A stretch of 63,914 bases of DNA, the filler included, from Psammoneis japonica (taxonomy: Eukaryota), in the NCBI GenBank assembly GCA_008632985.1. It is 4 parts of 4 records of this genome, joined end to end, with 100 filler letters (N's around TTAATTAATTAA, not from the genome) between each part and the next. Parts side by side here need not be neighbours in the genome. Positions count along the whole stretch, not along the records: positions 1 to 20,600 come from QPGO01000448.1; 3 more parts are not named here. One strand, 5' to 3'. Numbering within the stretch: position 1 is the stretch's first letter; the number at the start of each line of letters is the position of its first letter. Below are positions 1 through 20,600 of this stretch, piece after piece. A program made the translations under genes and the position numbers. Below the pieces are notes generated by a model. That model made no database searches. It saw only the letters and a list, made by a program, of their open reading frames with translations, and was not told the DNA's origin.

Positions 1-1472
1 GCAATGACGTAAATTGTCTGGCATTTGTTCATGTCAAAAACAAACTGTGGAATCATCTCTCACTGTTCCATCAGACTTGGCACCCAAGCAGATTGTTTTT
101 CCCAATGGCAGACATGTTCCAGCCACAGGTGAACACACGCATTAAAAAGGGCAACATTTTTGCAATTTTTGTGTGGTCTCACCAACTTGTGATCAAACTG
201 TGTTGATTGGAGAACAATGCTCCTCTTGTTTGCAAGTGCTTTGACACACCAACAAGACCCACCTGAGTGCATTAAAACAATCTGTTGCTTGCATGCAGCT
301 GGGGAACGTCTCCTCAACCACCATGGTCACATGCACAATTTGAACTCCAGCCAAGATGCCACCAGCACTGAGAATGCCTTGTCCTTGGCACAAGCTGATG
401 TTGCTTCAGGAGCTGCAGTGGGATGGGCAGGCAAGGGCATTTTGGTTTTGATCAGCTCTGGTGGCTGCACAGCCTTGTCTCCATGTCAACGCAAGGGGGT
501 GGTCAACAAGGCTTGATGTGACAATGCTCGGGGACAACGCGCTTGGAGCACAACAAGACAAAACCAACATTGTCAATCACGCAGACATGAAGGCCAATCA
601 ACTCTGTGACAATGTCAGTGTGGTGCATGCCAAGAGACAGACAATTGGTGTGAACAAGAGGTGAGGCATTCCAAAAAATGGCAGCAGCATGTTGGTTGGC
701 ACGGGGCACAGCAGAAGCAGCTTGACACTTGTTCACAACAAACATTTTTTCCTGATGCCAAAGTGGCCATGATGTGCCAAGCAGATCAAGGATGGGGGTT
801 GCTGGATTTGCAAATTTTGCAGCTGCCCTCACACTTTGCTGGGAAGTCATGTGTTTTTCTCACATGACAAGTCAGAGCACAAACATCTCAAAACTCTTTG
901 TGAGAGATGCCTGGCTCAGTGCCGCTGACACCTGGGACAGTGAAACCATCAGCCGTGTGCTTGACAGTTTGATGTTGGCCACTTCACGCATGATGATGAT
1001 GGTCCTGTGGCACACTGTGACAACCACTCTAGCCACCAGCTGCCACCAGTTAGAGGGCCCCAACTCTAACTGTTTACAACTGATTTGACTGTGTCGACTG
1101 GCTCAGTTGACTGCAACAAATGCAAAACGTCTGTCCCTGATGCGTTTTTTGGATTTTTGATTTTGATCCTCAGATCACTTCCAACTTCCATCTCAAGTGG
1201 TGACACGCGATCTGTTGCACAGAATTTTGAAAACGTGGATTCTTAAAAATCTGCATTCCCCAAAACAGTCATTTTTAAAAATGACACCGTTGTTTTTTGA
1301 GAATCGTTGGTCATGCCCATTGGGCAACGGTCATTTTGGGCATGTGGGCACAAATTTAACGGTCACACAATTTGACACTGTGCACACATGACATCACATC
1401 ACACAACAATGTGACACACAACACAACATCACTGCATCACATGATTTGACACCACAATGCATTTGCACACAA

Positions 1473-2840
1473 TCACATGCATCTTGGGATTTTGTCAGCT
1501 TTTGACACATCTGGTGGACAACCATTGACAGCCATTTTCAATTCTTTGCAACTGCTCTTGTCCAAGGCTTTCAAGACATGAACTTTCTCTCCTCCAAGTC
1601 TCTTAAAGTGATCCAACATGGCAACCTTGGTTTTTGAAATCGGGGTCGCTTTTGTGACCCTCCTGAAACTCAACGCATTTCTGCCATCCCTTTTTCACAT
1701 CAGCTGCAGTGTGTCCTTCAAAAGGATCGGACTTCTCCTCCTCCTGTTCCTTGTGCTGGCCTTCTTGCTGCTCCTCTTCTGACTCATCATGCTGCTCATC
1801 CTCCTCTGACTTGTCCTGCTGTTTGTCCCGGTGTTCCTTCTTTTGCTCTTCCTGTTGCTTGTGCTGACTCTCCTTCTCTGGCTCCTGTGTGACCTCTTCA
1901 GATTGCATTGATGAGTTTTCCTCCTGCTCTTCCTCCTGCTGTTCCTCCTCCTCCTGAGGTGTCTCTGCAGATTTCCTTCATGGATCCTTTTGACAGTTCC
2001 TTGGATCCTTGAGATTTCCCTTGGCACTTGTTCTGGATGTCCAAATGCTCTTCATCGCAACCAGCTTTTTCCTGCCATGTGCTGCAACAATGGTGCCCTC
2101 TTCTCATGCCTGTTTGTGCGCAATTTCTGCTTGCACCTTGCACCTGTTCCTTGGTTTGTCAACAACAGCAACCTCTTCTCGCAGAGTGTGCCTGTTCCTG
2201 GGCAGCCCATCAACACTGGCAACCTCTGCTTGTGGCGTGCGCCTTTTCATTGGTTTGTCCATTTCCACCATGCTCTTCTGCATGGGTTTGTTGCACTTCT
2301 TTGCTGCCTTGTTGCTCTTCTTGCCAGATTTCTTGGGCAACTTTGCCACCTTTGCATCTTCACAAACTGTCAGAGCCATCAGTGCTGTTGTCAATCAGAG
2401 GAAATGGAGCTAGAGGAACCGTCAGTGTCCTCGGAGACAACATCTTCCAAGTCGCTCTTGGTGTTTGTCTTCCATTTCTTCTTGGCTCCCTCAGAGACAT
2501 CATCTTCTGAGTTTCCATTGGTGGCCTTCTTCCTTTTCTTTTTGAGATCTTTCAAGTGCTTCCTCCAGCAGTTAAAGTGTGTGCATTTAGGGCCATGTTT
2601 CTGGTGGCAACTGGTGAGGGTGGTGGCTTTCTGGATGGTGCACACCACCCCAAACTTGGTGGCGCAAGGCAAACAAATGCACTTGGTTGGCATTTCCTCC
2701 ACCATGCTGGGTGTCACCAGGTTGTTTGCACCATCTCTGATGGAAATGGCAAAGCAACGAATTCCTCCTTCATTCAAGGAAGATTTGACAGCTGTCCTCA
2801 GCTTGTGCATGTCCTTCTTTAGACTTGATGACATGGTCAA
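1473..2840 (-). pseudogene. Decayed gene of unknown function (K-rich and E/Q-rich low-complexity segments) within the TE block
   Basis: Collinear minus-strand ORF pieces 2391-2840, 2104-2394, 1603-1908 and 1473-1673, broken by TGA stops and frameshifts. No recognisable domain. Confidence 0.3.
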
Positions 2841-3550
2841 CCTTGATGCAGCATCACAAAAACAATGTGTTTTTTGTCTGTGTGTTTACATCATGAGGTG
2901 GTGGTGGCTCTTCACATGCACGCGTGTTGGCGTGTGCCACAACTGCATTTTTTGCATGTGACATCATCTTCATTGTGACTTCATGTTGTTCCCTAATTAA
3001 AAAGGTCTTTTTTTCCAAGTCAGCTGTGCCGTTTTTTGACATTTTGGGAATGCCACGGAACCACCAGCTCATTGCATCCAACTCAAAAGAGAAAGCAACA
3101 TGGTTGTTGCTGTTCCTCTCTTTGTTGTTGCTTTCTGTCCAGCATCAGCCATTGTTTGTTTCCCTTCTCCATGCCATGCATCTTGCAAGAGGCAACAGTG
3201 GTGCTCCGCCTTGGTCTAGAGGTCGCGACCTCTCACCATCCTCCTCTTCCTGTTGCTCTGCCAGATGGTCAAGATGTCAAACATGTGATGACTCTTTCTT
3301 GCATTGTCCTTGTCATTCACCTTGTTGTGGACATGCTGGAAGTTCCCTTTGCCCCATGATGTCTCTCCCAAACAGCCTCCTTGTCGTTCACCTCCTCGTG
3401 GATGTGCTGGAACTTCCCGTTGCCATGATGTTTCTCCTGAACAGTCTCCTCACCAATCACTTTGTTGCCATGCATCACCATCATGCCGTTGCAGCTTGTT
3501 GGCCAGCCGTGACCATCCTTCAAGAATGTCATCCAATTCCCCTGCCACTG

Positions 3551-4045
3551 CTCCGTTGCAGCCTGCAGCTCCATCGCCGTCATCACAGCAATGCTGTCAC
3601 GCTCCAACCGCTTCGTTGCAGCCTTCAGCTCTGTCTCCATTGTCGCAGCAATGTCATCATGCTCCGACCACTTCATTGCAGCCTTCAGCTCTGTTGCCGT
3701 CATCACAGCAATGCTGTCATGCTCCGACCACTTCGTTGCAGCCTGCAGCTCCGTTGCCATTGTTGCAGCAACACCGTCAAGCTCTGACCACTTTGTTGAA
3801 GCCTTCAGCTCCATCTCCGTCGTCGCAGCAATGCCGCCATGCTCTGACCGCTTCGTTGCAGCCTTCAGCTGTGTTGCCGTCATTGCAGCAATGCTGTCAT
3901 GCTCCGACCATTTTGTTGCAGCCTTCAGCTCTGTCGCCATCATTGCAGCAATGCTGTCATGCTTTCACCATGTCGTTGCAGCCTGCAGCTCCATTGCTGT
4001 CATTGCAGCAATGCTGCCATGCTCTGACCGCTTTGTTGCAGCCTG
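3551..4045. repeat. 60-bp tandem repeat, about 8 units, encoding a 20-aa repeat (ATELKAATKxSEHDSIAAxT) on the minus strand
   Basis: Successive 60-nt lines align: CTTCGTTGCAGCCTTCAGCTCTGTTGCCGTCATTGCAGCAATGCTGTCATGCTCCGACCA. Unit differences are mostly CG/TG/CA. Confidence 0.95.
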
Positions 4046-4869
4046 CTTGTCCAGCACAGTTGATTCAATTTGCTGCACTCCCTTCAGAAGCAGTTCATTG
4101 GGTGCCTGTGCATGCACCCATTGCTGGGTCAACTGCAGAAAAGAAGAGAACTCGTCATTCCAGGGGAAAGGGCCGTCCATTCAAGAAAACATCTTCCAGG
4201 CAAGCATCCTCCTCTCCTGCACAGATTGCCAATCACAGTGATGGCAGCGATCGTGGTTGTCGTTGTGGCCATCGTCATGGTCGTTCCCGCACTTGTTGTT
4301 CCTCCCTCTCCAGTTCTTGGTCAAGGCTCACCTCACAGTTGCGCTGTGAACATCGATCGCGGTCACGTCACTCATGATCAATTTCTTGGTTTCGGTCTCG
4401 TTCTCACTCCAGTTCCAGGTTCAGGTCTAGATCTCTGCGCCGGTCCTGTTCTCTTCAAGAGACCACCAGCAGGCATTGGTCCTTGTCTGTTGGTGGGCAT
4501 GGTCACTCTCTTTGGTCGACCACTGGGTCAAGTTCTGCAGGAAACTGCAGAAAGAAATGTCACCGTGTCTCTGTTGGTTGTTCCAGTTGCAAAGAAGAAC
4601 CCTTGTTTGTGTCACCCTCTCCTTGTGGATGCCTCTGCTCAAGGAATTCCCCCAAAAGCATGCGCCTGCCCAAAACTTGTGCAGCAGGAGTTTCAGCCCT
4701 GTTTCTCACTGCACAAGGTCTTCTGTTTCCAGGTCCCGTCTGCTCAACCTGTTCAGATGGATTGGAACATGCTTCATCTGCTCGCACCATGTCCCACACT
4801 TCCAGGTCTGACAGGCATCGTTCTCTCAGCTTGGACTCTTTAAGTTTGGACGCTTTGGAGTTGCCTGTT

Positions 4870-6993
4870 GAGCTGTCTTCTTCATCTGCTGTTGGTGCAC
4901 TTGCAAATGCCCAAAAGGAACACTCACACCTTTTCTGTGGAGACACGAGTGGAGAAAGTTCGACTGTCCAAGGCCTTGTTGAGGGAAAATGTGTTTAAGG
5001 AGGAGAGCATGTTCAACATTGTTTTTATTTTTGAAGAGGCCCACCATGGGCACTTTGACGACAACTTGTCCAAGGACAAGCCAGTCGACAACCTTGGCCG
5101 GCTTTCTAAGATGGGATGAGAAAAATGTGTCAAGCGGCATCACGTCACATTCCAGTCTCCATTGCAGGTGGCTTTGCCGTGCAGAGCTGACACATCCCAC
5201 TGCCAAGACAACATTGTTGACCTCGCTTTGGAACTTGGATCAAATGACACGTCTGCTGCATGGTCATTGCATGACATTGACAGTGATCATTCCAATTGCT
5301 TCCTGATGGTTGTGAATTCTTTTCAACAAGATCACCCAACACATCGGATTGACTAGAATCATTTGCAAAAACTCATCAAGAAATGTCATGATGAACCAAA
5401 GGAGGGAGCGTCTCAAACTTTGGCCAAGGGGAAGACAGGAACACACCATCAGCTGCATGATTGCTTTGCTGATTTCGGACTGTGCACAAAAAATGTGAGC
5501 ACTTTTGGGAAGGGATTTGCTGATGGTGTTGCAAGGCCATGCGAGTGGAAGGGCACAAAGGAAGCCATGCAGTTCTTTTTGATTTTGTCTCAAATCATTG
5601 GCTGTCTGCAACCTGAGTTCACATCGAATCCTTGGGACTGTCCAGAATTGCCCAATTGAGCAAATGATCATGTGTGTCTTTTGCAGGGTGCAACGTCCGA
5701 GATTGAGACTGAGGCTGTGCGTTGCTTGTGGAATTCCTTCATCTGCTTCTCCAATTGTCACTCTGACCTGCACAACAGCACCAAGCCAACCATGGCACCC
5801 GTGTGCCATCCATGTCAGCAACTCATGATTCTGGAGTGATGAGAAACGCAGTTGTTGGTTGTTCTGGGTCCTTGGTGGATGACTGTGAATGGCGAATCAA
5901 ATTGACCCCACCACTGACAACACATGCAACAAAAACGCACCAAAATCTTCTGGACTGTCTGAAGTGAGTCAATCTGATGCTGCTTTTTGACAACTTGGAG
6001 AAATTCAAGGGACATGCCGGCATCGATGCTTGCAAAGTGACATGCAACATGGAGCCAGTCGGTTGTCACCAAGTTTTCCTGCACTTCATTGTTGCCCTCA
6101 TTGACAAGCATGAGCTTTCACCGCCCCAAATTGTGTCCGTGCAAACATGCTTCAAGCTGCATCCCCACAAGCCCTGCTTTTTGCCGCTGCCACCATGGTC
6201 CTGCTTTTGGTGTCTTGATTCAAGCCCACAAATGATCCTTTTGGGTTTGGACATGCCATGTGCGAAGCAATGGTGCACATCAAGAATGGCAACCCTCAGG
6301 CATCCCATCTTGATGCTCTTCTTGTTTGCCCAGGCCTGGGTTGCCCACTGGAGAGGAGTGAAATGAATGCAACCACAAGAAAGTTGGTGTGGCAATGGAA
6401 GTGTGGAGGGACCACCCAAAGAAGCCACAAACAAAGACACAGTCAGGGTTTGCAAGAAGTTTCTGAACAAGTTGTCAAAATTTTCGCCTCAATGCGGAGA
6501 TTTGTTTTTGAATCATTCAATGGGCATCATTGCCGAGCTTGGGATTTTGCCCTCTTGGATGATTGATTGCTGTCCTTGCAAAAAAGACAGTCTTCCTGAC
6601 TGCACAATGTTTGAGAAGCACCAACTTGGCACACCCAGCGATGCTGAAATTTTTCGTTTGGCACAAACGCTGAAGGAAGCTTTTTCCATGCAGTTGAACA
6701 AGGACCCTTCTGCAACCAACACACACTTCACCATTCGCTTCATGGAGAACCTGCTGTGCAAGTTGTTTTGAATGTGGTTTGGTGGAAGGAAAGGGTCCCA
6801 TTTTGATGTTTGCTTTTCCGGCCAGACCCTCTTTTTATTTCTGGAAAAGGCAACCCATGTGCATCATTTTGATGGATCTCCTGTCACCAAACCACCTGAA
6901 GGTGGATTGATTGCATCCTTTCCTTTCAAGGAAAAGGACACATGTTTGGCCAAATTGGCCAAACTGGCCAAAGGAGCTGGCAATTTGTTTTGA
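4870..6993 (+). pseudogene. Candidate TET/JBP-like 2OG-Fe(II) dioxygenase fused to a helix-hairpin-helix-like C-terminal domain (decayed)
   Basis: Reading through TGA stops gives FSNCHSDLHN (HSD at 5759-5767), then after a frameshift RNAVVGCSGSLVDD (5842-5883; C likely from Y). Further on are CGDLFLNHSMGIIAELG (~6493-6543), MENLLCKLF* (6742-6771) and FDVCFSGQ. Motif resemblance only. Confidence 0.45.
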
Positions 6994-7589
6994 AATAAAA
7001 ATCATGGTCCGGTTGTCCTCCCCTTCCCATTTCATTTTACAGAGATCATCGCTGATCCACAGTCTTGTCTCGTGCAAACATTGAAGCGGCACGCTGAAGA
7101 TGAGCCATTGTTGATTGACATGGACACAGACAATGATGTTGGTTTGCAGTTTGTGAAAAAGCAATGCATTTCTGCCCTCATGAACAAACCTGTTCCCCGT
7201 CGTCTGAGGAAGCGAAGGTGGACATGTCATCTCACCACATTCAATCAGGAATTTATTGCCTGACACAATGGACTGTGAGGCAATTGTCATGGCATCAGTG
7301 CAACATGATGGGTTGCCTGCAAGGATGCTGTTGTCAAGTTACATCATGTGACACAGCACCAAATGTCATGTCATGTGATGAAAATGATTCCAACAGTGTC
7401 ACACCACATGACATCATAAATTGTCACATGAGGCAAATGCGGTTGCACCCTCAACCACATTTTTCTAATTGATTTTAATCATGACATGATGTCACAAGTT
7501 GTCACATCACATGAGGACACATCCTGTGCACCCGCAACCACATGATTCCAATTGATTTTAATTGTGTGACATCATGTCATGTGATTGCA

Positions 7590-10500
7590 CATCTCCTGAT
7601 TTTGGGCTTTGGTCCAGTCACAAAAGCCAGAACAAGAGCAAGCAGAAACACATCATGCTCTGCCGCTTCTGTGATGGCCACAACGTCCTGTGCACACCCC
7701 ATTTTTACAAAGGCATCTCTGTCTGCCATGATTGGTTGTTTTGCCAGTCATTCACAGGTGATGTTGAACAGGAACAAGCTTTGCAATTGTTGATTGTTCA
7801 AACGCATTGTCAAGAATTCCCTGTTGACATTACTCTGGCCTTTTGCACAGGGCTGTGTTCTTGCTGCACACTCCGAATGAGTCAGCTGGCATCCACTTGA
7901 CTGATTTCTCCATGCCTTGAGCAATGATCCCATGTTCCCGTCACCACTTGCACTGAAAATGATGGACACTTCTTTCTTGCATGTCCATCCTGACTGATGC
8001 AATGTCGCCAACCTCTGCTTCGATGCTGCCATTGTGCATCTTGCACATTTTCCTTGCTTGTTCCAGCTGCAATGCCTTCCTTTTCTTTTCCTGCTCAGCG
8101 CATTGCTTTCTGCGCTGAGAAGAGGCTGATTCCACCAAGGACATGTGACGGGTGCATGAAGTCGCATCTTGAGAATTGGCAAATCCTTCCACATCTCCGG
8201 CTGCTGGCATGGCAGCAAATGCAACACCTGATGAGGCTGCTTGCATGGCAGCAAATGCAACACCTGATGAGGGTGGCCCTGCTTGATTAAACACGGGGTC
8301 TGTCTTCGCAGCAAATGCAACAGCTGATGAGGATGGCCCCACTTGGTTGACCACTGGTTCTTCTGGAATGCATTCCGCATCGTCAGATTCTGGAACATGT
8401 TCTTCCGGCACAGATTCTTCCAGTGAGATGCTTTTTTCCTCTGTGACAAACTCCTCTTCTTCTTCATGTGTTGTCTTCATTTCTGCTGGTTCATCATCAC
8501 CATCCTCTCCTCTGTCCTCTCCTGTGGAAGAGGAAGAGGAGGAGGAGGATGAATCAAGCAGTTGCTGCATGGCTTCATTGCTCACTCAATTCCTGCGGAT
8601 CAGAGCCATCAGTTCCCAGTCCAAATTCTTCAAGGATGAAGATGATTCTGATCTGTCACGCTGACACTCAGCCCGACTCCAACAAAACGAGGTAGAAAGC
8701 ACTCCTCCATCACCAAAAATGTGAGGTGGAACATCTTCCTGGCACATTGGGCACGTGCTTCCCATCTCACTGGTCTCATGCCAGTTGAGCAGACAATGCA
8801 GATGAATCACATGTTGGCTGGCCAGAAGACTTTGTTCCAAGGGGAATGTTTCACTGCAGCACACACAACACGTGGTGTCTGCTTCATCTGCCACCAAGGA
8901 TTCTTTGCTCGCATTGGCCACCTTTTGTCCTTTGTCTGACAAAACAGCAGAGGTTTCATCATCACTGTCACAATCTGACATTGATGTGAGCACATCTTCA
9001 CAAGTTGTCACCGTCAAATCATCATTCAATGAACATTTGGATGTCAAAGATTGGCATTTGCGAACCACAACACGGTGCATTTGTCCATGTGCAATGTCAG
9101 AAAGGTTGAAGGATGAATCGATGGCAGTCCAAATGTGTCCCACTGCAATGGGTCCACATTGGTGTCCATCTGTTTGTTTCACTAAACTGTCACCAACCAT
9201 CATCACCCATCCTTTGTGATTGTGTTGTTGCCTCCAATGCTGACTGTTCAGTGTCTTCCTTGAGATGACTTTTAGATGACGAGTGCGACTCTCTTGCCAT
9301 GAAACCACAGCAATGCAACACGTTTGTTGTGCACAACATCCAACTGCTTGGATTGCAGTTAAGCCCTTTGTACACTGTCACAAGTTCATTCCTCATGTCA
9401 AAGAAAAGTGTCACAAAATGATGGCTTGCATGGGCAACAGCAATCAAGGTGTCAACCCCGGGATCAAGAGCAATCAACTGATCCTCATCAATGATCTCCT
9501 CAGGAAAGTTGCAACAAACTGCCCTGGTGTTGGAGGGATGGATGTCGTGAGACAGCAAAATGGCAAAGCTTGAAATGAAGTCGTGTTCCCACCAACAATT
9601 TGTTTCAACATTGAGACGGCAACAATTGTCATCAAACACGCTGACAACCGCCATCCCCTTGGGACAGCAGCTGCAGTTTAAGGCAGGACAGAGACAGCAA
9701 ACTGTCTCTTTGTCAAGGAGCCCTCGTTGTTGCACAGAGATGGCCTGAGACAAAGCCTGCTCAAGTGTTGTCTGACGCAGGCGTTGTTCAAGCTTCATGT
9801 CATTAACAGGCGCGCACTTCCTGTTCTTGTGTTTGGCTCTGTTCAATGCCTGCAGATGAGCCAGGCTGTTGAATTTCCCTTCCGCCTTCACCGATTGGAA
9901 TGGGGGTGCATCTGCAGCAGTGTTGACCAGCAAGCCAAGAGGTTTGCCATTGTTGGGCAGACCTTCCTCCTCCAACTCATCCAACAAGTTCTGTCCAGGA
10001 ATGGCTTGGCTGGGAAAAGCCCGCTGTTTTGATTCCATGTCAACTGGATCAGGGAGTGCAGCCAGCTTCTTCTCTTTGTCAATTGGGTGTGGGAGTGCAG
10101 CTGGCTTCTTGTCATCTTCCTCTGCATGGTGAGGAAGTGAATCAGGGAGTGCAGCTGGCTTCTTCTCTTCATCAACGGGATGTGGGAGTGCCGCCGGCTT
10201 CTTGTCATCTTCCTCTGCATGGTGAGGAAGTGAAGCCGGTTGGTTGCAATCATCTAGCTCAAAGGCTTGTGAACCCTCCAACGGTTGGAGTTCTTTGTCA
10301 AAGGGCCAAGTCACTTGGCTTGGCAAACCATTCAAATCATCTAGAGTGGTGGCTGGCATCTTGTGCTCCCATTTGGTTGCGGGACAATGCATCGTCAGCA
10401 TTTGCATCTGGCCCGCACTCTTGCATCATGGTCATTTTCTCTCTGTGCTGATCACCAAGACGGTTGACCATCTCTTCAACTGTGATGCAATCAGCTGTCA

Positions 10501-11400
10501 CCTTGTTGGTGGCAGTGATCATGGGTTCCATGTGCTCCATTCCAAACACTGTCAAGTGCGGTGATTGCTCATTGCGTCCAGTGCTTTTTGTCATGTTCAT
10601 GGCAGCCATTGCGTCAGGACAACAGGTGACCCAACTGGCACTGGGGTCACCCTCATCACGCCTCTCCTTCACAAGAGTGGCAATTGACTCCTTCAAGGAA
10701 CCGCTGGTCCTTTCCACAGAACCCTGATCATGGGGCATTCTTGCACGACCACGAACTGTTTGGATGGAAGGTTGAATTTCCTTCAGTTTGTCAATGACTT
10801 CCTTGCCATGAACTTCTCCCCCATGATCAGATTGACACATGAGTGGAGGACCGCCATGTGCTTGGACTCTTTTGTTGGAGTTGGATGCATCCATGACAAC
10901 CTGCTAAAATGATCCTTGACCACAAGAAGCCACCTGTGCATGACCCCGAACACATTGTTTTGTGGGTCCTCTGTGCAGTCAACTCAGTCTGCTTGGACCC
11001 TGTCACGAAAATGATCTGACATTGTGGGACGAACTGCACCTTTGTGCTTTGGAACACGTGGCTGCTTAGAAGAACATTGAGGACAAGTGTCAATGAAAGC
11101 CTTCACAATGCTTTGGGCCACATTGAAATGCTTGTCCTTTGCCACCAAGTGAGTGGATGCCACCTTCTTGTGACCAGACAATGAGTGGATTTGTTTGAGT
11201 GTGTCGAAGCACATCATCTGGTGAACTGCTTGTTTGAGCTTGTCCTCCCCTTTGCAAAAAAGCAACAAAGGGCCCTCCTGAGGATGCTCCACACAGCACT
11301 TGTTGTTCATGCAGTGCCACTCAGGATGTTTGCGGTGCCACTGCTTGACATTGAGACCCTTTTCAGGGTCCTCCGTGTCCATGTGATCAAGCAAGCACAG
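7590..11400 (-). mobile_element. Ginger/GIN-like DNA transposon ORF (decayed): H2C2 zinc finger, rve integrase, Ulp1/C48 peptidase, RING finger, Cys-rich tail
   Basis: IHSLSGH...CPQC (10984-11394); RVQAD..KDHF; CQSDHGGE...PHDQGSVER (10337-10894). Ulp1-like HHF, VYKG (for VYDG) and QTDGHQCG; RING CxxC...HVIHLHCLLNW...CPMC (8586-9308). No RT or LTR belonging to it. Confidence 0.75.
10048..10233. repeat. 93-bp direct duplication in the linker of the Ginger-like ORF
   Basis: Units 10048-10140 and 10141-10233 both encode LPHHAEEDDKKPAALPHP.D.EKK.AALPD. Confidence 0.9.
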
Positions 11401-11799
11401 GATCCGTCAAAACCTTGGATGTTTTGGTGGTGGAAGCACTGCCAACCTCATCCAAGCCATGAGCCTCAGCTGGAAAACAGCATTTGTGATGATTCTCTTC
11501 TGTCATGGCAGAAAGTTTGTTGGGAGACAACAATGCATTGTGCCCTCCGAGCGATCGTTGTGGTGCCGATGCAAAACGACCAGTTTTGCTGGAATGACGG
11601 GTGGGGGTGAGACTGAGTCGAAGCATGGTTGTCAGCAACAGAACAACAAAGAAATGGAAGCAGTGGTGGTGGTGATGCCAACAAAAGCAAGTTCCATGAA
11701 AAGAGTGCACAAAGTGAGATCATCATGGGAGACATTGGATGATTCAGAAATGGGAATCTTCAAGATGGGTCAACAAAAAAAAAGGGTGGCAACCTGGTT

Positions 11800-12330
11800 C
11801 TACAAAGCATTGCAATCCCCCCCCCCCCAATTGACGATGGCTCCAAACTTGTTTTTTTTGGACTTCAGACAAATGCAACAAGGACAATGACTGCAAAAAA
11901 TGCAAACCGTGTTGGCTGCAATGTTGCAACAATCGTCCGACAAACGACTGAATGTTGCTTTGAAGGATTGGGGATGTCCTTCTACCTCATGAGCTTGTGA
12001 CATAATTTCAAAGCACTGAAGTTCATGGATGACACGTTTGTTCTTCGGTGGATGAACCTTTGTGTCTTTGCGACAAATCAATCCATCACGAACGAAACAT
12101 TTCTTGGACATCTGGTTCCATTCAGGGTGCTTGCGTCTCCATTGTTTGACATTGAGTCCAGCAGCATTGTCACAAAACTCACAATGCAACAAGAGGCATT
12201 CAATGTGATGGGGTTGCTCTTGTGTCAGCATCTTGGATGTGGTTCGGGCAAGCTTGCCCCCCGCACCATCGTGACGGAGTGCATCACGTTCGAACAACGC
12301 ACGATGTGGTGGAGACGATGCATTGTTCAT
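11800..12330 (-). pseudogene. Second, diverged integrase-type H2C2 module upstream of the Ginger-like ORF
   Basis: GLNVKQWRRKHPEW...AHEVEGH...CPCC parallels GLNVKQWHRKHPEW...IHSLSGH...CPQC in ORF 10984-11394. Confidence 0.6.
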
Positions 12331-13665
12331 GGTGTCAGCAACAAGGTTTGTGTGGACTGCATTGCATGGGAGAGCGAGCATGGCATTTACGAGAATGAAT
12401 GGCAAGCATTTTTGAAAATGGATGGGGGGGATTCTTGACAGGATTTGCATGGGATTTTAGGTGCGCGAGCTTTGTCGCACGCGATTTTAGTTTGTCGAGC
12501 ACAGTTTTGTGTGCTCTTTAGTTCTGCGCACATGTGCGCGATGTAGTTTGCTTTCGAGCCACTCGGCTCACAAGAACAATGACAACAGCCCGACTTTACA
12601 ACCCACACATCTTCGGCTCCTGTGACGGCATCTCAGCAGGATGCCAATCTGCTGTTCGACAGCAGTGAGGAGCATTGTTTTGTCTGTTGCCATTTGCCTT
12701 CAATTTCTGTCAGATTGACAGTCTTGCTCATTGTTTGCCCATTGAGCAACCGCCATCATCGTCGTTGATTCTGCTGATGACGTCATTTTTCATTTGTGTG
12801 GACCTCCGCACATGTTCCACTTACATCGGCAAGTCTGCACACACTCAATGCCAGACATCGGCTGGAATTTAACACCTCCGTCAGACTCCTGTGCTGCTGG
12901 ACATCTGGATTGTTTACACTGCCCTTTGTCGCTGAAGATGCATGTCCAACGGCTGTGTCCAAGTCTGTCCTTGACCCTGGTCACTTGACATTTTCATTCA
13001 ATGGTTGATGGTCAAGAACCCTGCATGTTCAAGGATCTTTGTCACCAAGGACTTGAATCCACCCTGGACTTTGGCTTTGCCACCACTCCACAAGCTCGCC
13101 GAGTCTGCTGTCCCTAATCTGCCCCAGACTGCTGGCACTCCACAGTTCCACCAGGTCCACGAGGACAACTGTGAGAGCAAGCAGCCATGATCACAGTCTG
13201 CGTTGGGGCAAGGGTGCTTTTCCCACGTTTGTTCATTCGTCCACAGCGCCTGACGCCAACGTCAACTGGCCAGCCTGATCGGGAAATCCAACCGAAGTAA
13301 AACAAGAATGGTTCGGGGGTCTTGTCCACCTCTGGTCAGCTCACCTGCAGGGGTTTACAACCAGCTGCTCTGCTCGCAAGCAAACCAAAGCGTCGCCAGC
13401 CGCGGGTGTGGATGTGCCGGCACAACTCTGCGCACCTGACAGGAAGTTTAGCACTTGACTGTGAACGGGGTGGCACAACCCGGCGACTTCTGATTTTAAG
13501 ACAGTTCAAGATTTCAAGCCAAGTTTCAAGTCAAGTTTCAAGCCAAATTCAAGTCAAGACCATGCTCTAGATTTGTTTCTGCCTTTTGTTCCTGCTGCAC
13601 CGTCCTTCGTCATGGTTCTCACATGACAGCAACAAACCAGAAGCTTTGAGTGCATTCTAGGCACC

Positions 13666-14958
13666 GTGCTCAATCAAGAAGATGACAGCCCTCTTCATTC
13701 TGCCCTGTTCATCAATGGGCTTGAATTGTGCAAGGAATTGTTCATGTTCTTACCTGCCCAAATTGACGCCCTTGCTTGCAATGACGGCGCCAATGCAGCC
13801 CCTTTGCCACGGATCTACAGGAACCTCCTAGCAGCTTTGATCATTTTCTACTTTGTTGAAGCTCGCAACGGTGATGATGTGACCAATGAACCCCAGTTGT
13901 TCACACGCGAGGAATTTTGCTGCTGCCACCTGGGTCTGGACCACTTGACCTCTCTGGCCACTGGTGCAGCACCCTCCGCACCTGTGCTGAGTCCCTTGCC
14001 ATCCAAACCAGGTGAACCCAGCACCATTTTGACACCAGTCCCGCACTGTGCCACCATTCAGGTGTCTCCATTTTGTGGCAGCCTTGGCCTGGTGCAGGAT
14101 TTCAGCCCTCCCACAGGCCTGCACTCTAAGACCAGTTGGGACACTCCACCCACGGCTTCCAAAGCTGCAACCTTTGCACCCCGCAAACCATGTGCTGCCA
14201 ACCTCAACGTGTCAGCCACTGTCACCCTTCACGACCTTTGTTTGGCAAGTGATGGTGACATGAACTTGCCGCACGTTGACAACTTGCTTCTTGCATTTCC
14301 TGATGGGGAGTCTCCTGTTCCCATCATTGAATCTGTTCACAACAGTTCAATCAATTCATCAGATGGGGAGTTCAGGACATGCAAGCAGCTTTGTTGTCCT
14401 GAAGTCTCGCACCACGAGACTGGGCCTCCCGGTTGGATCCCTCAAGTCTCGCACCACAAGACCAGGCCTCCCGATTGGATCCCCCAAGTCTCACACCACA
14501 AGACCAGGCGTCCAGAGCCTCCCAATTGGATCCCCCAAGTCTTGCACCACGAGACTGGGCCTCCCGATTGGATCCCCCAAGTCTCGCACCACGAGACTGG
14601 GCACTCCGATTGGATCCCCCAAGTCTTGCACCATGAGACTGGGCGTCCAGATTGGATCCCCCACGTCTTGCACCACAAGACCAGTCATCACCCCGATCGG
14701 ACCTCTGAAGTCCTGCACTGCAGGACCAGTCACCCTGATTGGAGTTCCAAAGTCTTGTGCTGCCAGACCAGTTGTCCTGACTTGACCTCCGCAAGCGTGC
14801 ACCACAAGAGTTCTCTCTCCGATCGGATCCCTGAACCCTTGCACCTTGAGACTCATTGCTCCAATTGGATGACTGCAGGCTTGCACTGTGAGACCAGTCA
14901 ATCCTGCAGCAACAGTCTCTCAGGAGATGCAGCTGAGCTTGCAATCGGATTGATTTAG
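13666..14958 (+). pseudogene. Gag-like ORF of the non-autonomous LTR element, carrying 14-aa tandem repeats
   Basis: N-terminus (VLNQEDDSPLHSALF...QIDALA) resembles diatom Copia Gag starts. It is shared with the second copy (ORF 49876-50973). Confidence 0.5.
14402..14900 (+). repeat. 42-bp tandem repeat (QVSHHETGPPDWIP), each unit with a hairpin AGTCTCG-CACCA-CGAGACT
   Basis: About 6-7 good units followed by degenerate ones. About 4 units in the second copy at 50190-50355. Confidence 0.9.
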
Positions 14959-16546
14959 CACAAGACCACCACTTGTGTCTTGAGCTCATGCTTGCTCTGT
15001 TCCCCAAGTCATGCAAACACCATGCCACCCTGCTCAAGCATTGCTCTGCTTTTCTAGCAGCAGCCCAGTGTGACAGCCATTCCACGAACCAACAGACGGC
15101 TGTCAGTCTTTGCGACCTTCGCTCAGGGAGTGATGGTGATGTCAACTTGTCTGCATTGTCCTGCGATGCTGCCCCGCTGTTCCACATTGTCAACCAGACC
15201 AATCTTTGCTCCTTCCATTGAAAGTGCACATGTGGAGTTCCACAAGATCCCAAGTGTGCCTTGTGCTTTGACAAGTGCAATGGCATCTGCAATTGGGGAG
15301 ACACAGCCCATCTCGAGATGACCCATTTGGAGAATGCAACGTTGCTCCAGGATCTTGACCCTTTCTTGTCTCCTCATGTTTTTGTGCTTTGACTCCAAAG
15401 TTCTTTGCTCAATCCAAAGTCGAGTCTGTTTCTGTGGCTCCTCAAGCAAAATGGGGAGTGACAGGATTTGAACAGGATTTTGGGTGCGCGCGATTTGTCC
15501 CGCGCAATTTTAGTTTGTCAAGCACAGTTTTGTGTGCTCTTTAGTTCCGCGCGCATGCGCACGATGTAGTTTGCTTTCGAGCCACTCGGCTCACAAGAAC
15601 AATGACAATGGCCTGACTTTACGACCCACACGTCTTCGGCTCCTGTGACGGCATCTAGGTGGGATGCTCATCTGCTGTTCGACAGCAACAAGGAGCATTG
15701 TTTTGTCTCTTGCCACTTTCCTTCAATTTCTGTCAATTCTCAAGAGTGGGTGTTTCCAAAAATCCACGAGCGCAAGTCACGTGCATTTTTTTAAGAATTG
15801 TCAAATTTTGGCAAGATTCCTAGAATCCGCTTTTAAGGCATGCACACAACGAGCGCACAGCAGCACAATGTCAGACAGACGACAGTCGTGCATTTTTTGT
15901 GATTTGCGTGACAAATTGCCATTGACGCCAACGATGATGATGACAATTTTCAGACACTGACAGAGGACAACTTTGTGACAGGCACTTAATGCATTGATCA
16001 ATTGCACTGTGCAGAACACACATGTGCAAAGAAAGTCCCCTGGACGAACTCATGATCGTTCGACAATCGAGTGCATAAAACGACGGTCAAAAAACAGAGC
16101 TCCTTGTTGGTGTGACGTTTTGCGCTCTAATGGAGGTTGCTCGTGGGGACTTTCATGACTGAACACATTCTCAAATGCAATGAACTAAATGTCCATGATG
16201 ACAAAAGACTCTGGGGCACGTCGCTGTCATCGCCATCGTCACGACAATGCACCACTGTCACGTCGCCGATCATTGGCGACGAGGCGCGTAGCGCGCTGCG
16301 TGTTTCTCGCACAGCAGAAAATCCTGAAAAATCAAATTGTCGTGCCTTTGCCCTTGGTTCTGCAATCACCTTAAGAATTTTTGATTTTTTTAAAAATGCG
16401 TGCAACAGATCTTTTACGACCACATCATCATCATTCTCACAGAAGCTCACAACCACAAAATTGACATCATCTGCGGCAGCTGTCACCGTTCGTGGCGCCA
16501 CACACTCTAGAATCAACCAGTGCAGCACATTGTGAATGAACCAACC

Positions 16547-17085
16547 ATGGGCTTTGGAGATGATCTTGCATCGCGCCATGCTGCCAAGAAGGAGGAGTGG
16601 AACAACAAGGCAGAGGACGCAAATGAGGAAATTAAAGGAAATTTGCAAGAGGCAGGAGACCGGCACAAAGATGAGATCGATGATGCTGGAAAGGAAATCG
16701 CTGCCAAACATGGAAAAGGTGTGCAGTGTGCACAGTGCATTGTTGTTTGGCTTTTCGGTTGCTTCACAACTCATGTGCCCTCCTGCTTGATGACATCTTT
16801 GAATTTACAGAGGCGATTGAAGGCAAATTGGAGGATGCCAAGCAAGGTGTGAACGACGCAATCAAAGACACCACTCAGGGCTGGAAAGACAAGGTGACTG
16901 AGACCATGCAGGGCTGGAAGGACGATGCAAATGAGGCTGTGGAGGGTGCCAAGGAGAAGCACAATGACAAGAAGCAGGGTTGGAAAGACAGTGCCAACAA
17001 CTGGAAGGAGGGCATTCAGGGCGACCACAACAAGTGGAAGCAGGATGCCCAAGACAGTGTCGACGATGCGCTCCGTGATGACTGA
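16547..17085 (+). CDS. LEA-like hydrophilic helical-repeat protein with one intron (16719-16810), open but hypermutated
   Basis: ATG at 16547; GT(GTGC)...TTTACAG splice keeps frame into EAIEGKLEDAKQG. QGWKD-type 11-mer repeats; no Tyr. Confidence 0.6.
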
Positions 17086-17673
17086 TTGTGAAGCAGGAAA
17101 TCCATGTGGACAACAGGAAGCCAAGCATTAAATTTTGCACTGTGATTGTTAGCAACTTGCCAAGTTTGAAGTGGATTGAGTCACAAGTGCTGCATTTTTT
17201 GAGTTCGGCCCACCACCCAAAATCACTGCTGACTCTAACTTGCACTGTCCACCTCTGTCAAAAGTCACGCGTGGTCAGGACCACCTTGCAACTACACCTG
17301 ATGCCTGTTGCCCAAGGCAGGCCAAAATCAATGGCGCAAGAAACCAACTAAAAACTGCCGTGGCAACTGCGCAGTTTTGACAGCTGTTTTCAATTCGCAT
17401 TGGTCAACTGCGGCAAGCAGAATCTTCCAAGTGTCACAGTGACAAGCAAAATGGCAACACCAGCCAACACAGCCCATTCAGCCCATGCTGTGTCTCTTTT
17501 CAGATCAAAGACATTTCAAATGCAGAGCACCTTACAACATGGAATTACACTGCCCACTCTGCACATGACTTTCTTCAGGAAGACGTTTTTAAGTGGCACT
17601 CGACAACACGAGATAAGTCATTTTGTGACCCTGTGTTTCCCTTGTGAGTCTGCGCTGTGCATGTTGTTGCTCT

Positions 17674-18410
17674 TTAACTGATTCTGGCTGCTCCAACCAA
17701 GGCCAATAAAATCCAAGGCCTTTTTGCGATCGCTGCGGAGTTCACCCTTTTTGTGACAGAAACGCTGCTTGGCAACCCATCTAGCCGAGAGACGCGACAA
17801 TGACCATTTTCAAGCTTGAACTCTTTCAATCGTTGAAACTTTTCTTTCCACGCATCGTCCTTGTCTGCAAGGCGCTGCATCTTCCACACAAAGCCAATTG
17901 AATCCAAAGCTTGCTTGAGATCATGACGGAGCTTACCTTGGCTGTAGAGGTCACGCTGAGGCCGAACCCAAATTCCCAACATGGCATCTTTTCTGGCAAG
18001 CACAGGGACGCAACAGTGACCGTTCTCCATCTGGCACACTTTCAGCTGTTCAAGCTTCTCTCTCCAAGACAAGTCACCACCACAATCGCTGGATCTCTTT
18101 GCAGTGCTTGCAACGACTCTGCGGTGCTTGTGAGTGCTGTCGTTGTTGTGCTCTTCAGCACTGTCCTCCATGATGGTTCTCTTTGCAATGCTCGCGACTC
18201 TACGGTGCCTGTGAGTGCTGCCAATGGCTCTCTTTGCAATGCTCATGACTCTGTGTTGCTTGTTGTGAGCACTGCTGATGCCATTGCTGCACTCTTCAAC
18301 ATTGTCCTCTGGAGAAGCCTTGCCGACGTTTTTCTGGAAGGAGGGTGTTTTGTTGTCTGACTCTTCACAGAAACACACGACAGCCGCCAATGGTCTGTCG
18401 CGCATCATGA
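17674..18410 (-). pseudogene. Helicase-associated (HA) domain repeat protein
   Basis: WREKLEQLKVCQMENGHCCVP...LGIWVRPQR...ALDSIGFVW, followed by a second WKEKFQRLKEFKLENGHC repeat. Confidence 0.8.
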
Positions 18411-18756
18411 AATCACTGCTGTTGTTCTCATTGAGATTGTTTTCACACTCAGTTTGACTCACAGAACTTTCACTCATTGCAAGTGCACCGACTGTTGGCA
18501 AGTGCACCGGCTGTTGGCAAGTGCATTTGCAGTTCATGCAATCACAATGATGGAGCCGTGTTGTTTGACAGCTGTCCCATGCAGCACAGTGGCGTGCCAT
18601 CACACCAATTGCACATTGGTCTGTTCTGCACCATGCGGGCATTTTGCTTAAAACGTGTTAATTTCGCGTGACAACATCATTTTGAAAAAACTTGTGTCAT
18701 CGTCACAGCCGTTGTGATGCGCAATGTGAGTCACGTTTTGTCAAAACGCCACCTTT

Positions 18757-18915
18757 TGCTCAAACATGTCCATGTTTGAGAAAACGGGACTCAATGTTTG
18801 AGGAATTGCTCAAACTTTGAGCAACATTGAGCACTTGCTCAAACTTGCTGCTCAAACTTGGCAAGTTTGAGCAAACACTCCAACTTGTGCAAAGTTTGAG
18901 CAGTTGCTCAAACAT
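18757..18915. repeat. Cluster of TGCTCAAAC/GTTTGAGCA motifs in both orientations
   Basis: Roughly ten copies forming short hairpins, e.g. TGCTCAAACTTTGAGCA and CTCAAACATGTCCATGTTTGAG. Confidence 0.8.
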
Positions 18916-19464
18916 GCAAAATTGATGCTGTGATGTGCGCTGCAGTGCCGGGTGCAAAACCGCTGTGCAGCACCGGCAATGCGTTCCAGCTCTGGGTGGG
19001 ACCTCGTGCTGCTGAACTGTGACATCGACAGTTTGTTGGATTGTGTCACATGTCGCGCACGTAGAAAGGTGCGTGACTTTTTAAAAATTTTGGGTCATTT
19101 TGTGGTGCACTCATTGAGCAATCCGTCCAACAACTTTTGACATTTTTTGTTGCAGCGCGATTCTACAATGTCTTAAAAATTGCGTGGGGCAGGCACACTT
19201 GCAAAAACGTTGAGTGGTGAGAGGCACAATGGTGCCACAAACTTGGTCGTTCATTTGATGTTGAAGACAAATGTGTCCATTGGTCAAATTCTCATGCTGC
19301 GGAGCTTGCACACGCAGAATTCCGTGGGCCCAATGTCACACGGAGTCCCACCTGGGACTGGAACCCGTGCGGCCTGCTTGTGCTGTGCTGTGCTGCACTT
19401 GCTGTGCGCAACACAATTGTCACTTTCACTGCATGCAGGTGTCAGTGCAAAGTGTGTTCAATGA

Positions 19465-20600
19465 AGTTCACCCTTTTTGTGACAGAAACGCTGCTTTGGC
19501 AACCCATCTAGCCGAGAGATGCGACAATGACCATTTTCAAGCTTGAACTCTTTCAATCGTTGAAACTTTTCTTTCCACGCATCGTCCTTGTCTGCAAGGC
19601 GCTGCATCTTCCACACAAAGCCAATCGAATCCAAAGCTTGCTTGAGATCATGACGGAGCTTACCTTGGCTGTAGAGGTCACGCTGAGGCCGAACCCAAAT
19701 TCCCAACATGGCGTCTTTTCTGGCAAGCACAGGGACGCAACAGTGACCGTTCTCCATCTGGCACACTTTCAGCTGTTCAAGCTTCTCTCTCCAAGACAAG
19801 TCACCACCACAATCGCTGGATCTCTTGCAGTGCTTGCAACGACTCTGCGGTGCTTGTGAGTGCTGTCGTTGTTGTGCTCTTCAGCACTGTCCTCCATGAT
19901 GGTTCTCTTTGCAATGCTCGCGACTCTACGGTGCCTGTGAGTGCTGCCAATGGCTCTCTTTGCAATGCTCATGACTCTGTGTTGCTTGTTGTGAGCACTG
20001 CTGATGCCATTGCTGCACTCTTCAACATTGTCCTCTGGAGAAGCCTTGCCAACGTTTTTCTGGAAGGAGGGTGTTTTGTTGTCTGACTCTTCACAGAAAC
20101 ACATGACAGCCGCCAATGGTCTGTCGCGCATCATGAAATCACTGCTGTTGTTCTCATTGAGATTGTTTTCACACTCAGTTTGACTCACAGAACTTCACTC
20201 ATTGCAAGTGCACAGACTGTTGGCAAGTGCACCGCTGTTGGCAAGTGCATTTGCAGTTCATGCAATCACAATGATGGAGCCGTGTTGTTTGACAGCTGTC
20301 CCATGCAGCACAGTGGCGTGCCATCACACCAATTGCACATCGGGTCTGTTCTGCACCATGCGGGCATTTTGCTTAAAATGTGTTAATTTCGCGTGACAAC
20401 ATCATTTGAAAAAAACTTGTGTCATCGTCACAGCCGTTGTGATGCGCAATGTGAGTCACGTTTGTCAAAACGCCACCTTTTGCTCAAACATGTCCATGTT
20501 GAGAAAACGGGACTCAATGTTGAGGAATTGCTCAAACTTTGAGCAACATTGAGCACTTGCTCAAACTTGCTGCTCAAACTTGGCAAAGTTTGAGCAAACA
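19465..20600. repeat. Near-identical direct copy of 17739-18877 (HA gene plus motif cluster) ending at a scaffold gap
   Basis: Sequence identity by eye. Differences are mostly 1-nt indels plus a few CG/TG changes. Confidence 0.9.

Follow-up and report, generated by a model that had tools for sequence, protein, structure and literature searches.

Positions 4988-6963 on the plus strand of the window, by which we mean the whole 63,914-nucleotide stretch of Psammoneis japonica DNA that was analysed, are a dead, hypermutated copy of a family of proteins of about 700 residues. The family is conserved, selected and enzyme-like, has an invariant His-x-Asp, lies beside transposase-like genes in metagenome contigs and is named by no database that we searched. 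That the window holds a dead copy of a conserved, enzyme-like family linked to mobile elements is very probable. The best explanation overall, to which we assign a probability of roughly one half, is that the family represents a transposon passenger enzyme, with a divergent Fe(II)/2-oxoglutarate-type oxygenase as its preferred chemistry. The window copy cannot give a working protein; being dead, it is useful in that it points to the family, and it cleanly records the unusual decay of TA and CG by which it was inactivated.

The window copy and its decay

A profile made from alignment A1 (35 homologs, 718 positions) was compared to the window with hmmsearch and matched it in four frame pieces, which together run from profile position 6 to 649 (Table 1). 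The earlier note had picked out four motifs in this region, and all four are found in place on the plus strand. CHSDLHN and RNAVVGCS are in different reading frames, which puts a frameshift between them, and the copy as a whole has at least three frame changes and eight in-frame stops. Its amino acid composition is shifted relative to that of the family: Tyr is 0% in the window copy vs 3.4% in the family and Arg 2.4% vs 6.4%, while Cys (5.7 vs 2.8%) and His (6.1 vs 3.1%) are in excess.

The DNA around the pseudogene shows an unusual decay in which TA and CG have become TG/CA. TA is nearly absent, with 7 occurrences in 4800-7000, which leaves TGA as almost the sole stop codon, so that open frames alone say little here; 76 ORFs of at least 40 amino acids overlap 3000-10000 and crowd both strands. 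A search of the main text of papers for a TA-depleting, RIP-like process returned none that was relevant.

The tandem repeat that precedes the conserved part may be what is left of an N-terminal extension of low complexity, such as the long homologs have; the family ORF of one metagenome locus, L001, has an N-terminus that is repetitive and of low complexity in translation. Self-comparison of the window gave no second copy of the family.

Table 1. Features of the window that bear on the family copy, with profile coverage, independent E-values (i-E) and in-frame stops where these apply.
Feature	Position	Strand	Remarks
60-nt tandem repeat, 8.2 copies	3554-4044	+	upstream of the conserved part
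Frame piece 1	4988-5806	+	profile 6-268; i-E 6.4e-25; N-terminal block and H-x-D; stops at 5117 (TGA), 5354 (TAG), 5657 (TGA)
CHSDLHN	5756-5776	+	family H-x-D-x-x-N motif, candidate metal site; C-H-S-D is 5756-5767
Frame piece 2	5803-6180	+	profile 267-391; i-E 9.6e-21; TGA at 5965
RNAVVGCS	5842-5865	+	inside frame piece 2
CNMEP	6043-6057	+	family counterpart NPCNMDP; inside frame piece 2
Frame piece 3	6173-6445	+	profile 405-483; i-E 2.2e-6, the weakest piece; TGA at 6233, 6311, 6359
Frame piece 4	6418-6963	+	profile 475-649; i-E 1.4e-30; C-terminal block; TGA at 6769
GDLFLNHSMGIIAELGILPSW	6496-6558	+	motif block in the C-terminal part
LNHSMGIIAELGILPSW	within 6496-6558	+	C-terminal block, holds the H512 equivalent
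ENLLCK	6745-6762	+	inside frame piece 4
Decayed ORF with RING-H2 finger	8589-9377	-	convergent with the pseudogene; zf-ANAPC11 E 9.4e-5, zf-RING_2 E 0.0045, both below cut-offs
Decayed ORF, weak Integrase_H2C2 match	10987-11406	-	E 3.3e-4, 21.1 bits (cut-off 25.5); basis of the name 'Ginger-like integrase'

Homologs of the family

Searched with a translation of 5767-6993 in which TGA was read as X, 1.84 billion cluster representatives yielded 28 proteins at E<=1e-3, the best at 5.5e-16. Intact relatives exist, all of them unnamed and from metagenome assemblies. These homologs, together with profile i-E values down to 1e-30, go far beyond chance and show a real, conserved gene family. A word-indexed search with the broken read of 5767-6993 returned 905 candidates, none at E<=0.01; further homolog searches recovered only the clade of homolog P0005 and added no diversity, and viral contigs searched with a narrower family alignment (A2) gave nothing.

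Databases of named families give the family no name. None of the 35 members is matched in Pfam by PF12851 or by any 2OG-oxygenase model even at E<=10, and at the same threshold their C-terminal half is matched by no model of any kind. Compared directly to Pfam at E<=10, nine ORF pieces from this region matched only TPR_IPO5 (E 0.12). PDB sequences gave no match at E<=10, either to the profile or to homolog P0011, and the ESM Atlas gave no usable match and no model for homologs P0005 and P0002. Among PHROGs and NCBIfam nothing was recurrent over the 35 members at E<=1; the sole HNH PHROG matches are two, each in a single member, at E 0.2 and 0.28.

The family gene is under purifying selection in most comparisons. 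Three of the four pairs for which a ratio could be computed have dN/dS of 0.21, 0.18 and 0.10, and the fourth, L001/L006, has 0.66 at a dS of 0.014; in six of ten pairs dS is saturated and gives no ratio. The genome from which the window comes holds several diverged copies: among 42 same-genome contigs, 10 are at least 99% alike, 2 are 95-99%, 10 are 90-95% and 20 are below 90%. Exact contigs are not independent confirmation, because the single DNA sequencing source may be the source sample itself. No RNA sequencing run is listed as containing the sequence.

Conserved residues

The strongest conservation falls on the H-x-D-x-x-N motif, of which H258, D260 and N263 are invariant in all 27 homologs that cover it; conservation of the HxD among homologs had been chosen beforehand as a refuting check on the TET/JBP proposal, and it brought no refutation. 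The Cys that adjoins the motif His is kept in 21/27. Downstream, in what we call the R strand, R287 (its first Arg) is Arg in 28 of 30 homologs and R295 in 29 of 30, and the position six residues past the first Arg is Tyr in only 9/30 and Gln in 16/30. In TET/JBP enzymes a downstream His completes the 2-His-1-carboxylate triad, and the Arg that binds 2-oxoglutarate comes about 10-16 residues after it (H---R). Between D260 and R287/R295, an interval that places 27-35 residues between the HxD and the Arg strand, the family has no column with His in 60% or more of its members.

Other His residues are conserved elsewhere: H60 (8/8), H80 (9/10) and H512 (20/20). H60 is part of an H60-x13-[RK]74 arrangement, conserved in 8/8, which lies upstream of the HxD, an order unlike that of TET/JBP, and an Arg 16 residues past H512 is present in only 7/20. 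Conserved Arg positions further include R52, R156 (10/11) and R445 (18/20). Near the C-terminus an E-N-x-x-C-K motif is held by E581 (19/20), N582 (20/20), C585 (19/20) and K586 (19/20).

Genomic neighbours

At 11 of 15 metagenome loci an ORF of about 1130 amino acids is convergent with the family gene and lies 129-217 bp from its end. The 15 loci all fall into a single clade, with 53-67% identity to the query, so that this linkage is in effect one observation; at locus L008 about 900 bp of downstream sequence is available and the partner ORF is absent. The partner ORF has dN/dS of 0.14-0.16. By eye it contains a MULE-like '..FGDQG..' / 'C-D-Y-H-H' stretch and a 'C-T-C-x9-C-R-H' stretch, and it looks like a MULE/SWIM transposase, a type defined by a DDE core and a C-x-C-x(n)-C-x-H SWIM finger. 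Compared to Pfam at E<=10, no family was found in any of four copies, and its sole match among PDB sequences is COMMD9 (E 0.27).

Neighbours in the window differ from those at the metagenome loci. The window has no homolog of the partner ORF; downstream of the pseudogene are the RING ORF and the weak integrase match of Table 1. The earlier note had described the gene as convergent with a Ginger-like integrase, and of this the minus-strand orientation holds, with a RING-H2 ORF and a sub-cut-off Integrase_H2C2 match; an integrase core (rve) was found neither among 21 ORFs on the minus strand between 7035 and 13530 (E<=1) nor in 10340-10903, and neither 10340-10903 nor 9193-10425 has a PDB match. 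A Ginger-type integrase joins a core of the retroviral type to an H2C2 zinc domain, and a cysteine protease often accompanies it. No convincing terminal inverted repeats were found in window positions 1-20000 or in four of the loci. The window also contains HA-domain genes. The broader link to mobile elements that had been claimed is supported by the transposase-like convergent ORF at the metagenome loci and by the diverged paralogs in the window's own genome.

Possible function

In our view the family would supply DNA transposons with an accessory (passenger) enzyme that has a His/Asp metal site. In the mechanism that we prefer, this enzyme would be a highly diverged oxygenase of the Fe(II)/2-oxoglutarate type, and its modification of a base (5mC or T) in the DNA of the element or close to it would counteract host silencing, as is thought for the transposon-borne TET/JBP genes of fungi. 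Dioxygenase chemistry as such is possible, and we put it forward tentatively. It would be consistent with the surroundings of the HxD, where a hydrophobic strand, a short loop and c-H-x-D are followed by 'saVvGlS', the pattern of strands I-III in AlkB-type oxygenases. Other metalloenzyme folds also contain H-x-D, which counts against the oxygenase reading, as do the lack of a link to any oxygenase by profile methods, the missing His between the HxD and the Arg strand, the poorly kept Arg past H512 and an AlkB alignment score inside the range of unrelated controls.

A different metal-dependent enzyme, a nuclease or hydrolase that would aid movement of the element or resolution of DNA and use H258/D260 to bind Mg, Mn or Zn in place of Fe/2OG, is a serious though doubtful candidate. 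Its invariant residues (H60, H258, D260, C352, E380, H512, E581, C585, D602) are spread over the whole protein, and conserved His, Asp, Glu and Cys distributed in this way fit more than one metal site; the tight convergent pairing with a transposase-like ORF and the lack of an oxygenase signal in any search would also suit such an enzyme. However, no nuclease or hydrolase family is matched apart from the two single-member HNH hits given above, and accessory nucleases are, to our knowledge, not usual in Mutator-like elements. The diatom MULEs listed in one survey have a single ORF (PMC6446971), which also speaks against a nuclease or hydrolase.

The earlier note had proposed a two-domain enzyme, in which a true TET/JBP dioxygenase is followed by an HhH-fold, aGPT-pyrophosphorylase-like domain that acts on oxidised thymine. 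This is unlikely. The H-x-D-x-x-N is invariant, its spacing equals that of the human TET motif given in the earlier note, and in some members (P0011) the Arg strand reads R-V-G-V-V-F-Y-Q-R-K-S and presumably resembles the last TET strand. Against this, PF12851 matches none of the 35 members, PDB sequences gave nothing, no downstream His precedes the Arg strand, and the Tyr of that strand is present in the minority given above. The second domain finds no support in the Pfam result for the C-terminal half or in hhalign comparisons to E. coli Nth, MutY and AlkA, each of which gave a probability of 0.1% and none of which fell on the NHS..GLLPSW stretch proposed as HhH. That TET/JBP genes are carried by fungal transposons is documented (PMC12730594) and is a point in favour of the two-domain enzyme.

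The family could also be a non-catalytic accessory protein, a DNA- or chromatin-binding or anti-silencing factor like VANC of VANDAL elements, with its conserved residues serving structural roles such as zinc sites. Conserved positions rich in Cys and His, among them C-x-C-H and C352, would fit this, and VANDAL elements are a precedent for transposon accessory proteins without catalysis, as cited in PMC12730594. We nevertheless think it improbable: H, D and N are strictly invariant within a six-residue motif across lineages of less than 30% identity, as one would sooner expect of an active site, and the Cys beside the motif His is lost in some homologs (kept in the 21 of 27 noted above).

A far more speculative form of the oxygenase reading, which we regard as very improbable, is a rearranged DNA-base dioxygenase fold, either permuted in a circular way, so that the 'H...R' half (H60-x13-[RK]74) precedes the H-x-D, or split by an insert of about 250 residues. 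Mutator-like and other DNA transposons would have spread it in marine algae, and by oxidising thymine at TpA and 5mC at CpG it would be the chemical source of the TA->TG/CA and CG->TG/CA decay seen in the repeat blocks of the genome. Lastly, the notion that there is no gene, only chance open frames in TA-poor DNA where stops are almost only TGA and frames crowd both strands, is refuted by profile matches with i-E to 1e-30 over about 640 of 718 positions and by 28 independent homologs.

How mobile elements resist silencing by the host can be seen in transposons that encode enzymes of their own for modifying chromatin or DNA, and the clear cases so far are the fungal TET/JBP genes, the plant VANDAL factors and the oomycete SET genes. 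Should the family turn out to oxidise bases, DNA modification carried by transposons would reach a new eukaryotic branch and a rearranged fold; otherwise it would still be an abundant family without a name, whose clear active-site candidate is open to mutation and assay.

Comparison with known systems

The likeness to HhH-GPD glycosylases and phage aGPT-pyrophosphorylases consists of the motifs of the earlier note (G..LF..H..G...LG and E..LC). The regions that hhalign aligned are 667-712 (Nth), 225-245 (MutY) and 293-321 (AlkA), none on 505-530, in a comparison made with these three glycosylases and of low sensitivity to HhH because each template was a single sequence. With AlkB the family shares a strand, the H-x-D and then a 'VSVSLG'-like strand, and the only hhalign alignment sets H258/D260 on the H-x-D of E. 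coli AlkB. This alignment is non-significant (probability 0.2%; score 16.4, vs 11.4-18.0 for eight unrelated control proteins), and nothing in the family was aligned to the second His or the Arg strand of AlkB.

As the putative second ORF of a Mutator-like or other DNA transposon, the family gene is like VANC of VANDAL elements, the SET-domain genes of Phytophthora Harbinger/MuDR elements and maize mudrB. For these passenger genes a role in host silencing or in integration has been proposed (PMC12730594; PMC6446971). The latter source gives the diatom MULEs one ORF each and describes no such two-gene unit. No sequence relation of the family to VANC, the SET-domain genes or mudrB was found.

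The family differs from TET/JBP in its length of about 700 residues and in an extensive conserved C-terminal half that TET/JBP lacks; unlike the fungal members in particular, it has no PF12851 match and no downstream His near the Arg strand, and its hosts are presumably not fungi, the HA-domain genes of the window pointing tentatively to a stramenopile. A search for TET/JBP sequences in 401 bacterial genomes gave 0/401, 0/401 and 1/401, the last spurious and beside mreB, and a search of the main text of papers on TET/JBP with transposons in stramenopiles returned none that was relevant.

The H-x-D/E iron-binding motif is a TET/JBP feature (PMC12730594; bioRxiv 10.1101/2023.11.30.569493). According to PMC12730594, TET/JBP genes are found on a variety of fungal DNA transposons and have been exchanged between superfamilies, and the fungal 'PE-type' transposon-borne TET/JBP proteins give HHpred E-values of only 1.4-19 yet are structurally TET-like. 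A TET/JBP reading of the present family survives its profile misses because these PE-type proteins are likewise barely detectable by profiles. As in the fungal transposons with TET/JBP genes (Kyakuja, Zisupton, Dileera, hAT, EnSpm, Harbinger and others; PMC12730594), an accessory enzyme-like gene lies beside a transposase or, here, a transposase-like gene, and the family is like the fungal genes in standing next to different element types, in its H-x-D and in having some lineages too divergent for profiles.

A decayed member of a conserved gene family

The gene studied here is a defunct member of an unnamed protein family that is linked to mobile elements and has a conserved H-x-D site. The four motifs from which the earlier note had read a transposon-borne TET/JBP-like dioxygenase with an HhH-like domain are present on the + strand where it had placed them, CHSDLHN and RNAVVGCS in different reading frames. 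Only 7 TA dinucleotides occur in 4800-7000, leaving TGA as almost the sole stop; 76 ORFs of at least 40 aa overlap 3000-10000 on the two strands, and open frames in the 4800-7000 region are weak evidence. Nine raw ORF pieces of the region gave no meaningful Pfam match. Positions 5767-6993 were read through with TGA as X (P0001). A word-indexed search with this query found no homolog; phmmer against 1.84 billion cluster representatives returned 28 proteins at E<=1e-3, 4 of them at <=1e-10 (best 5.5e-16). Using an intact homolog (P0005) as second query, we gathered close relatives, aligned 35 sequences (alignment A1) and searched the A1 profile across six frames of positions 1-14000. The four consecutive matches indicate a nearly whole family member at 4988-6963 and, judged from this similarity, the motif region belongs to a real gene family. 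No second copy was found in the window.

Positions of features in the window, with the basis for each call
Feature	Position	Strand	Basis
Profile piece 1	4988-5806	+	profile positions 6-268, i-E 6e-25
Profile piece 2	5803-6180	+	profile positions 267-391, i-E 1e-20
Profile piece 3	6173-6445	+	profile positions 405-483, i-E 2e-6
Profile piece 4	6418-6963	+	profile positions 475-649, i-E 1e-30
CHSDLHN motif	5756-5776	+	read from sequence
RNAVVGCS motif	5842-5865	+	read from sequence
GDLFLNHSMGIIAELGILPSW motif	6496-6558	+	read from sequence
ENLLCK motif	6745-6762	+	read from sequence
Decayed ORF with RING-H2 finger	8589-9377	-	Pfam
Decayed ORF with Integrase_H2C2 match	10987-11406	-	Pfam, sub-threshold
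Coatomer gamma-like host gene	22961-26457	-	appendage platform E 2.6e-11; long uninterrupted frames; non-depleted block
Tandem SWIB/MDM2-domain host protein	47253-48008	+	E 1e-60; non-depleted block
Ty3/gypsy-type pol genes (RT, RNase H, integrase)	53205-55208, 57094-57918, 58119-58988	-	Pfam

At least three frame changes are needed across the four profile pieces, and the copy carries eight in-frame stops (TGA at 5117, 5657, 5965, 6233, 6311, 6359 and 6769; TAG at 5354); it is dead and inactive. Its residue content departs from that of the family for Tyr (0% vs 3.4%), Cys (5.7% vs 2.8%), His (6.1% vs 3.1%) and Arg (2.4% vs 6.4%), the direction expected from decay of TA and CG to TG or CA. At 19 consensus Tyr positions it has His four times, Cys three times and Tyr never. 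Any given His codon here may once have encoded Tyr, so motifs have to be judged on intact relatives.

Decay of TA and CG across the window

The window consists of contigs of ~20.4 kb strung together with N44-TTAATTAATTAA-N44 spacers (20601-20700, 41082-41181 and 61566-61665, ~20.48 kb apart); these are six-frame-stop linkers, and sequences on either side of one are not necessarily linked in the genome. Beyond a 778-N gap (62597-63374) the end is AT-rich. Three repeat-rich blocks (1-20500, 27600-41000 and 48600-61500) are depleted, with observed/expected ratios of 0.06-0.15 for TA and 0.22-0.63 for CG, 1.5-1.8 for TG/CA, and 0.8-1.25 for every other dinucleotide; the gene blocks 20701-27400 and 41182-48400 have TA at ~0.5 and CG at ~0.95. 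Composition changes abruptly, within 500 bp, at two points internal to contigs (~27.5 kb and ~48.5 kb). Tyr accounts for 0.2-0.4% of residues in ORFs of the depleted blocks; the coatomer and SWIB genes have 2.2-2.8%.

A ~2.6-kb repeat family, inverted between two joined contigs at 74-83% identity (12753-14576 vs 52137-50176, 15098-15743 vs 50170-49546), served for reading the mutation spectrum. When repeat pairs of the window are aligned, transitions make up 325 of the 466 mismatches. Aligned pyrimidine-purine steps comprise CG/TG (46), CG/CA (44), TA/TG (14), TA/CA (7) and TG/CA (47), the last far exceeding any other class among 133 double mismatches (next class, 7). Copies that decay independently, from CG and from TA, leave this kind of TG/CA excess, and the process looks like repeat-targeted decay of both into TG/CA. 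Surviving TA in the depleted blocks is mostly TTAA (71), CTAA (38), TTAC (34), CTAG (28) and TTAG (26), and ATAT (1), CTAT (1) and GTAC (3) are nearly lost. TA decay may have a flanking-base preference. A literature search found no published description of such a TA-depleting process. None of the results ties it to the protein family; such a connection, as the earlier note proposed, is speculation and highly improbable.

Because TA decay costs Tyr codons but creates no stops, an open frame in the Ty3/gypsy pol genes is no evidence of function; one such frame of 668 aa is still open despite only 0.4% Tyr. A TA-depleted block also holds a 1.1-kb duplication (17739-18877 and 19465-20600, 98.3% identical) whose ORFs match the Helicase-associated (HA) domain in Pfam (E-values of 6e-20 and 7e-21). 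Expansion of HA domains may point to a stramenopile host.

Intact relatives and their conserved residues

Family members are labelled "hypothetical protein" or left blank in all sources. None of 28 homologs matched a Pfam family at E<=0.01. At E<=10 the 35 A1 members matched 11 families, one member each (best E 0.0087), with no oxygenase, TET/JBP, HhH or aGPT-Pplase model among the matches. PHROGs and NCBIfam scans gave no recurrent match, the PDB sequence library none at E<=10 for the A1 profile or the homolog P0011, and the ESM Atlas neither a usable match nor a model for P0005 or a further homolog, P0002.

Conservation is strong and follows a pattern. H258, D260 and N263 (P0005 numbering) are each present in 27/27 sequences, R287 in 28/30 and R295 in 29/30; six residues beyond R287, the Tyr position holds Y in 9/30 sequences only, against Q in 16/30. 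Among 20 mutually distant members, conserved His columns are H60 (8/8), H80 (9/10), H258 (14/14) and H512 (20/20), and C352, E380, R445, E581, N582, C585, K586 and D602 are conserved as well. Diverged gene copies gave dN/dS of 0.21, 0.18 and 0.10 and one near-identical pair 0.66 at dS 0.014; in six pairs dS was saturated, giving no ratio. Conservation and dN/dS together indicate that intact members encode a working protein; the obvious candidate for its active site is H-x-D-x-x-N.

Association with mobile elements

Scanning metagenomes with a narrower alignment (A2) found 15 loci, in 11 of which (L001-L006, L009-L013) a convergent ORF of ~1130 aa lies 129-217 bp past the family ORF, frame-broken in L013. 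Three of the other four are too short to judge its presence; L008 has about 900 bp downstream and lacks it. Six copies of this partner ORF (for example L001:3955-7362, minus strand) share 80-100% identity; its dN/dS is 0.14-0.16. Pfam gave nothing for it at E<=10, and the PDB a match at noise level only; by eye it has a Mutator-like DDE stretch, a SWIM-like C-x-C...C-x-H finger and a C-terminal CCHC-like cluster, and it may be a MULE transposase that has diverged strongly. All 15 loci fall in one clade, so this linkage amounts to a single observation.

The window copy groups in a different clade, with P0002, P0013, P0014, P0025 and P0028 (tree of 38 sequences, 169 columns), and its neighbours, the RING-H2 and Integrase_H2C2 ORFs, are unlike those of the loci. 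The earlier note had it convergent with a Ginger-like integrase; no integrase core was found near it, and no partner-ORF homolog in the window. No convincing terminal repeats were found in positions 1-20000 or in four of the metagenome loci. One public run, which may be the source sample and is not independent, contains the stretch as exact contig pieces (1006, 811 and 235 bases, 0 differences). In that run 32 of 42 contigs are less than 95% alike, which points to several diverged family copies in the genome.

Proposed function and comparison with known oxygenases

The family is a conserved, selected protein of ~700 residues with an invariant His-x-Asp-x-x-Asn. In one clade its gene lies beside a transposase-like one, and the genome has multiple copies. 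We infer a DNA-transposon passenger enzyme with a putative His/Asp metal site. As a single guess we favour a highly divergent oxygenase of the Fe(II)/2OG type that, on the model of fungal elements, would act on DNA bases and so dampen host silencing; we put oxygenase chemistry at roughly 0.3. The same residues could instead belong to another metalloenzyme serving transposition, a slightly less probable reading. A non-catalytic factor, in a family with this invariant motif, is improbable.

For the C-terminal half, the suggested HhH or aGPT-Pplase likeness found no support: no library was matched, and hhalign to three E. coli HhH-GPD glycosylases, a low-sensitivity test, gave a probability of 0.1%, none touching NHS..GLLPSW. 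The combined TET/JBP-plus-HhH architecture appears unlikely.

As for the oxygenase reading, two papers take as defining for TET/JBP enzymes an H-x-D/E motif together with a His further downstream and an Arg, written "HXD and H---R" (bioRxiv 10.1101/2023.11.30.569493; PMC12730594). The H-x-D is conserved among intact homologs (H258 and D260), but the downstream His is absent in canonical form, with no conserved His between D260 and the Arg strand, and the TET/JBP label is not established. The Arg 16 residues past H512, the next invariant His, is kept in only 7/20. Upstream of H-x-D, H60-x13-[RK]74 (8/8) could be a permuted arrangement, or nothing at all. Aligned by hhalign to A1, E. coli AlkB places its H-x-D on H258/D260 and its next strand on the next strand of the family, with a probability of 0.2% and a score of 16.4 vs 11.4-18.0 for eight unrelated E. 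coli proteins, and is therefore at noise level. Fungal transposon-borne "PE-type" TET/JBP proteins reach HHpred E-values of only 1.4-19 and yet are structurally TET-like (PMC12730594), so a TET/JBP protein may be missed by profile methods.
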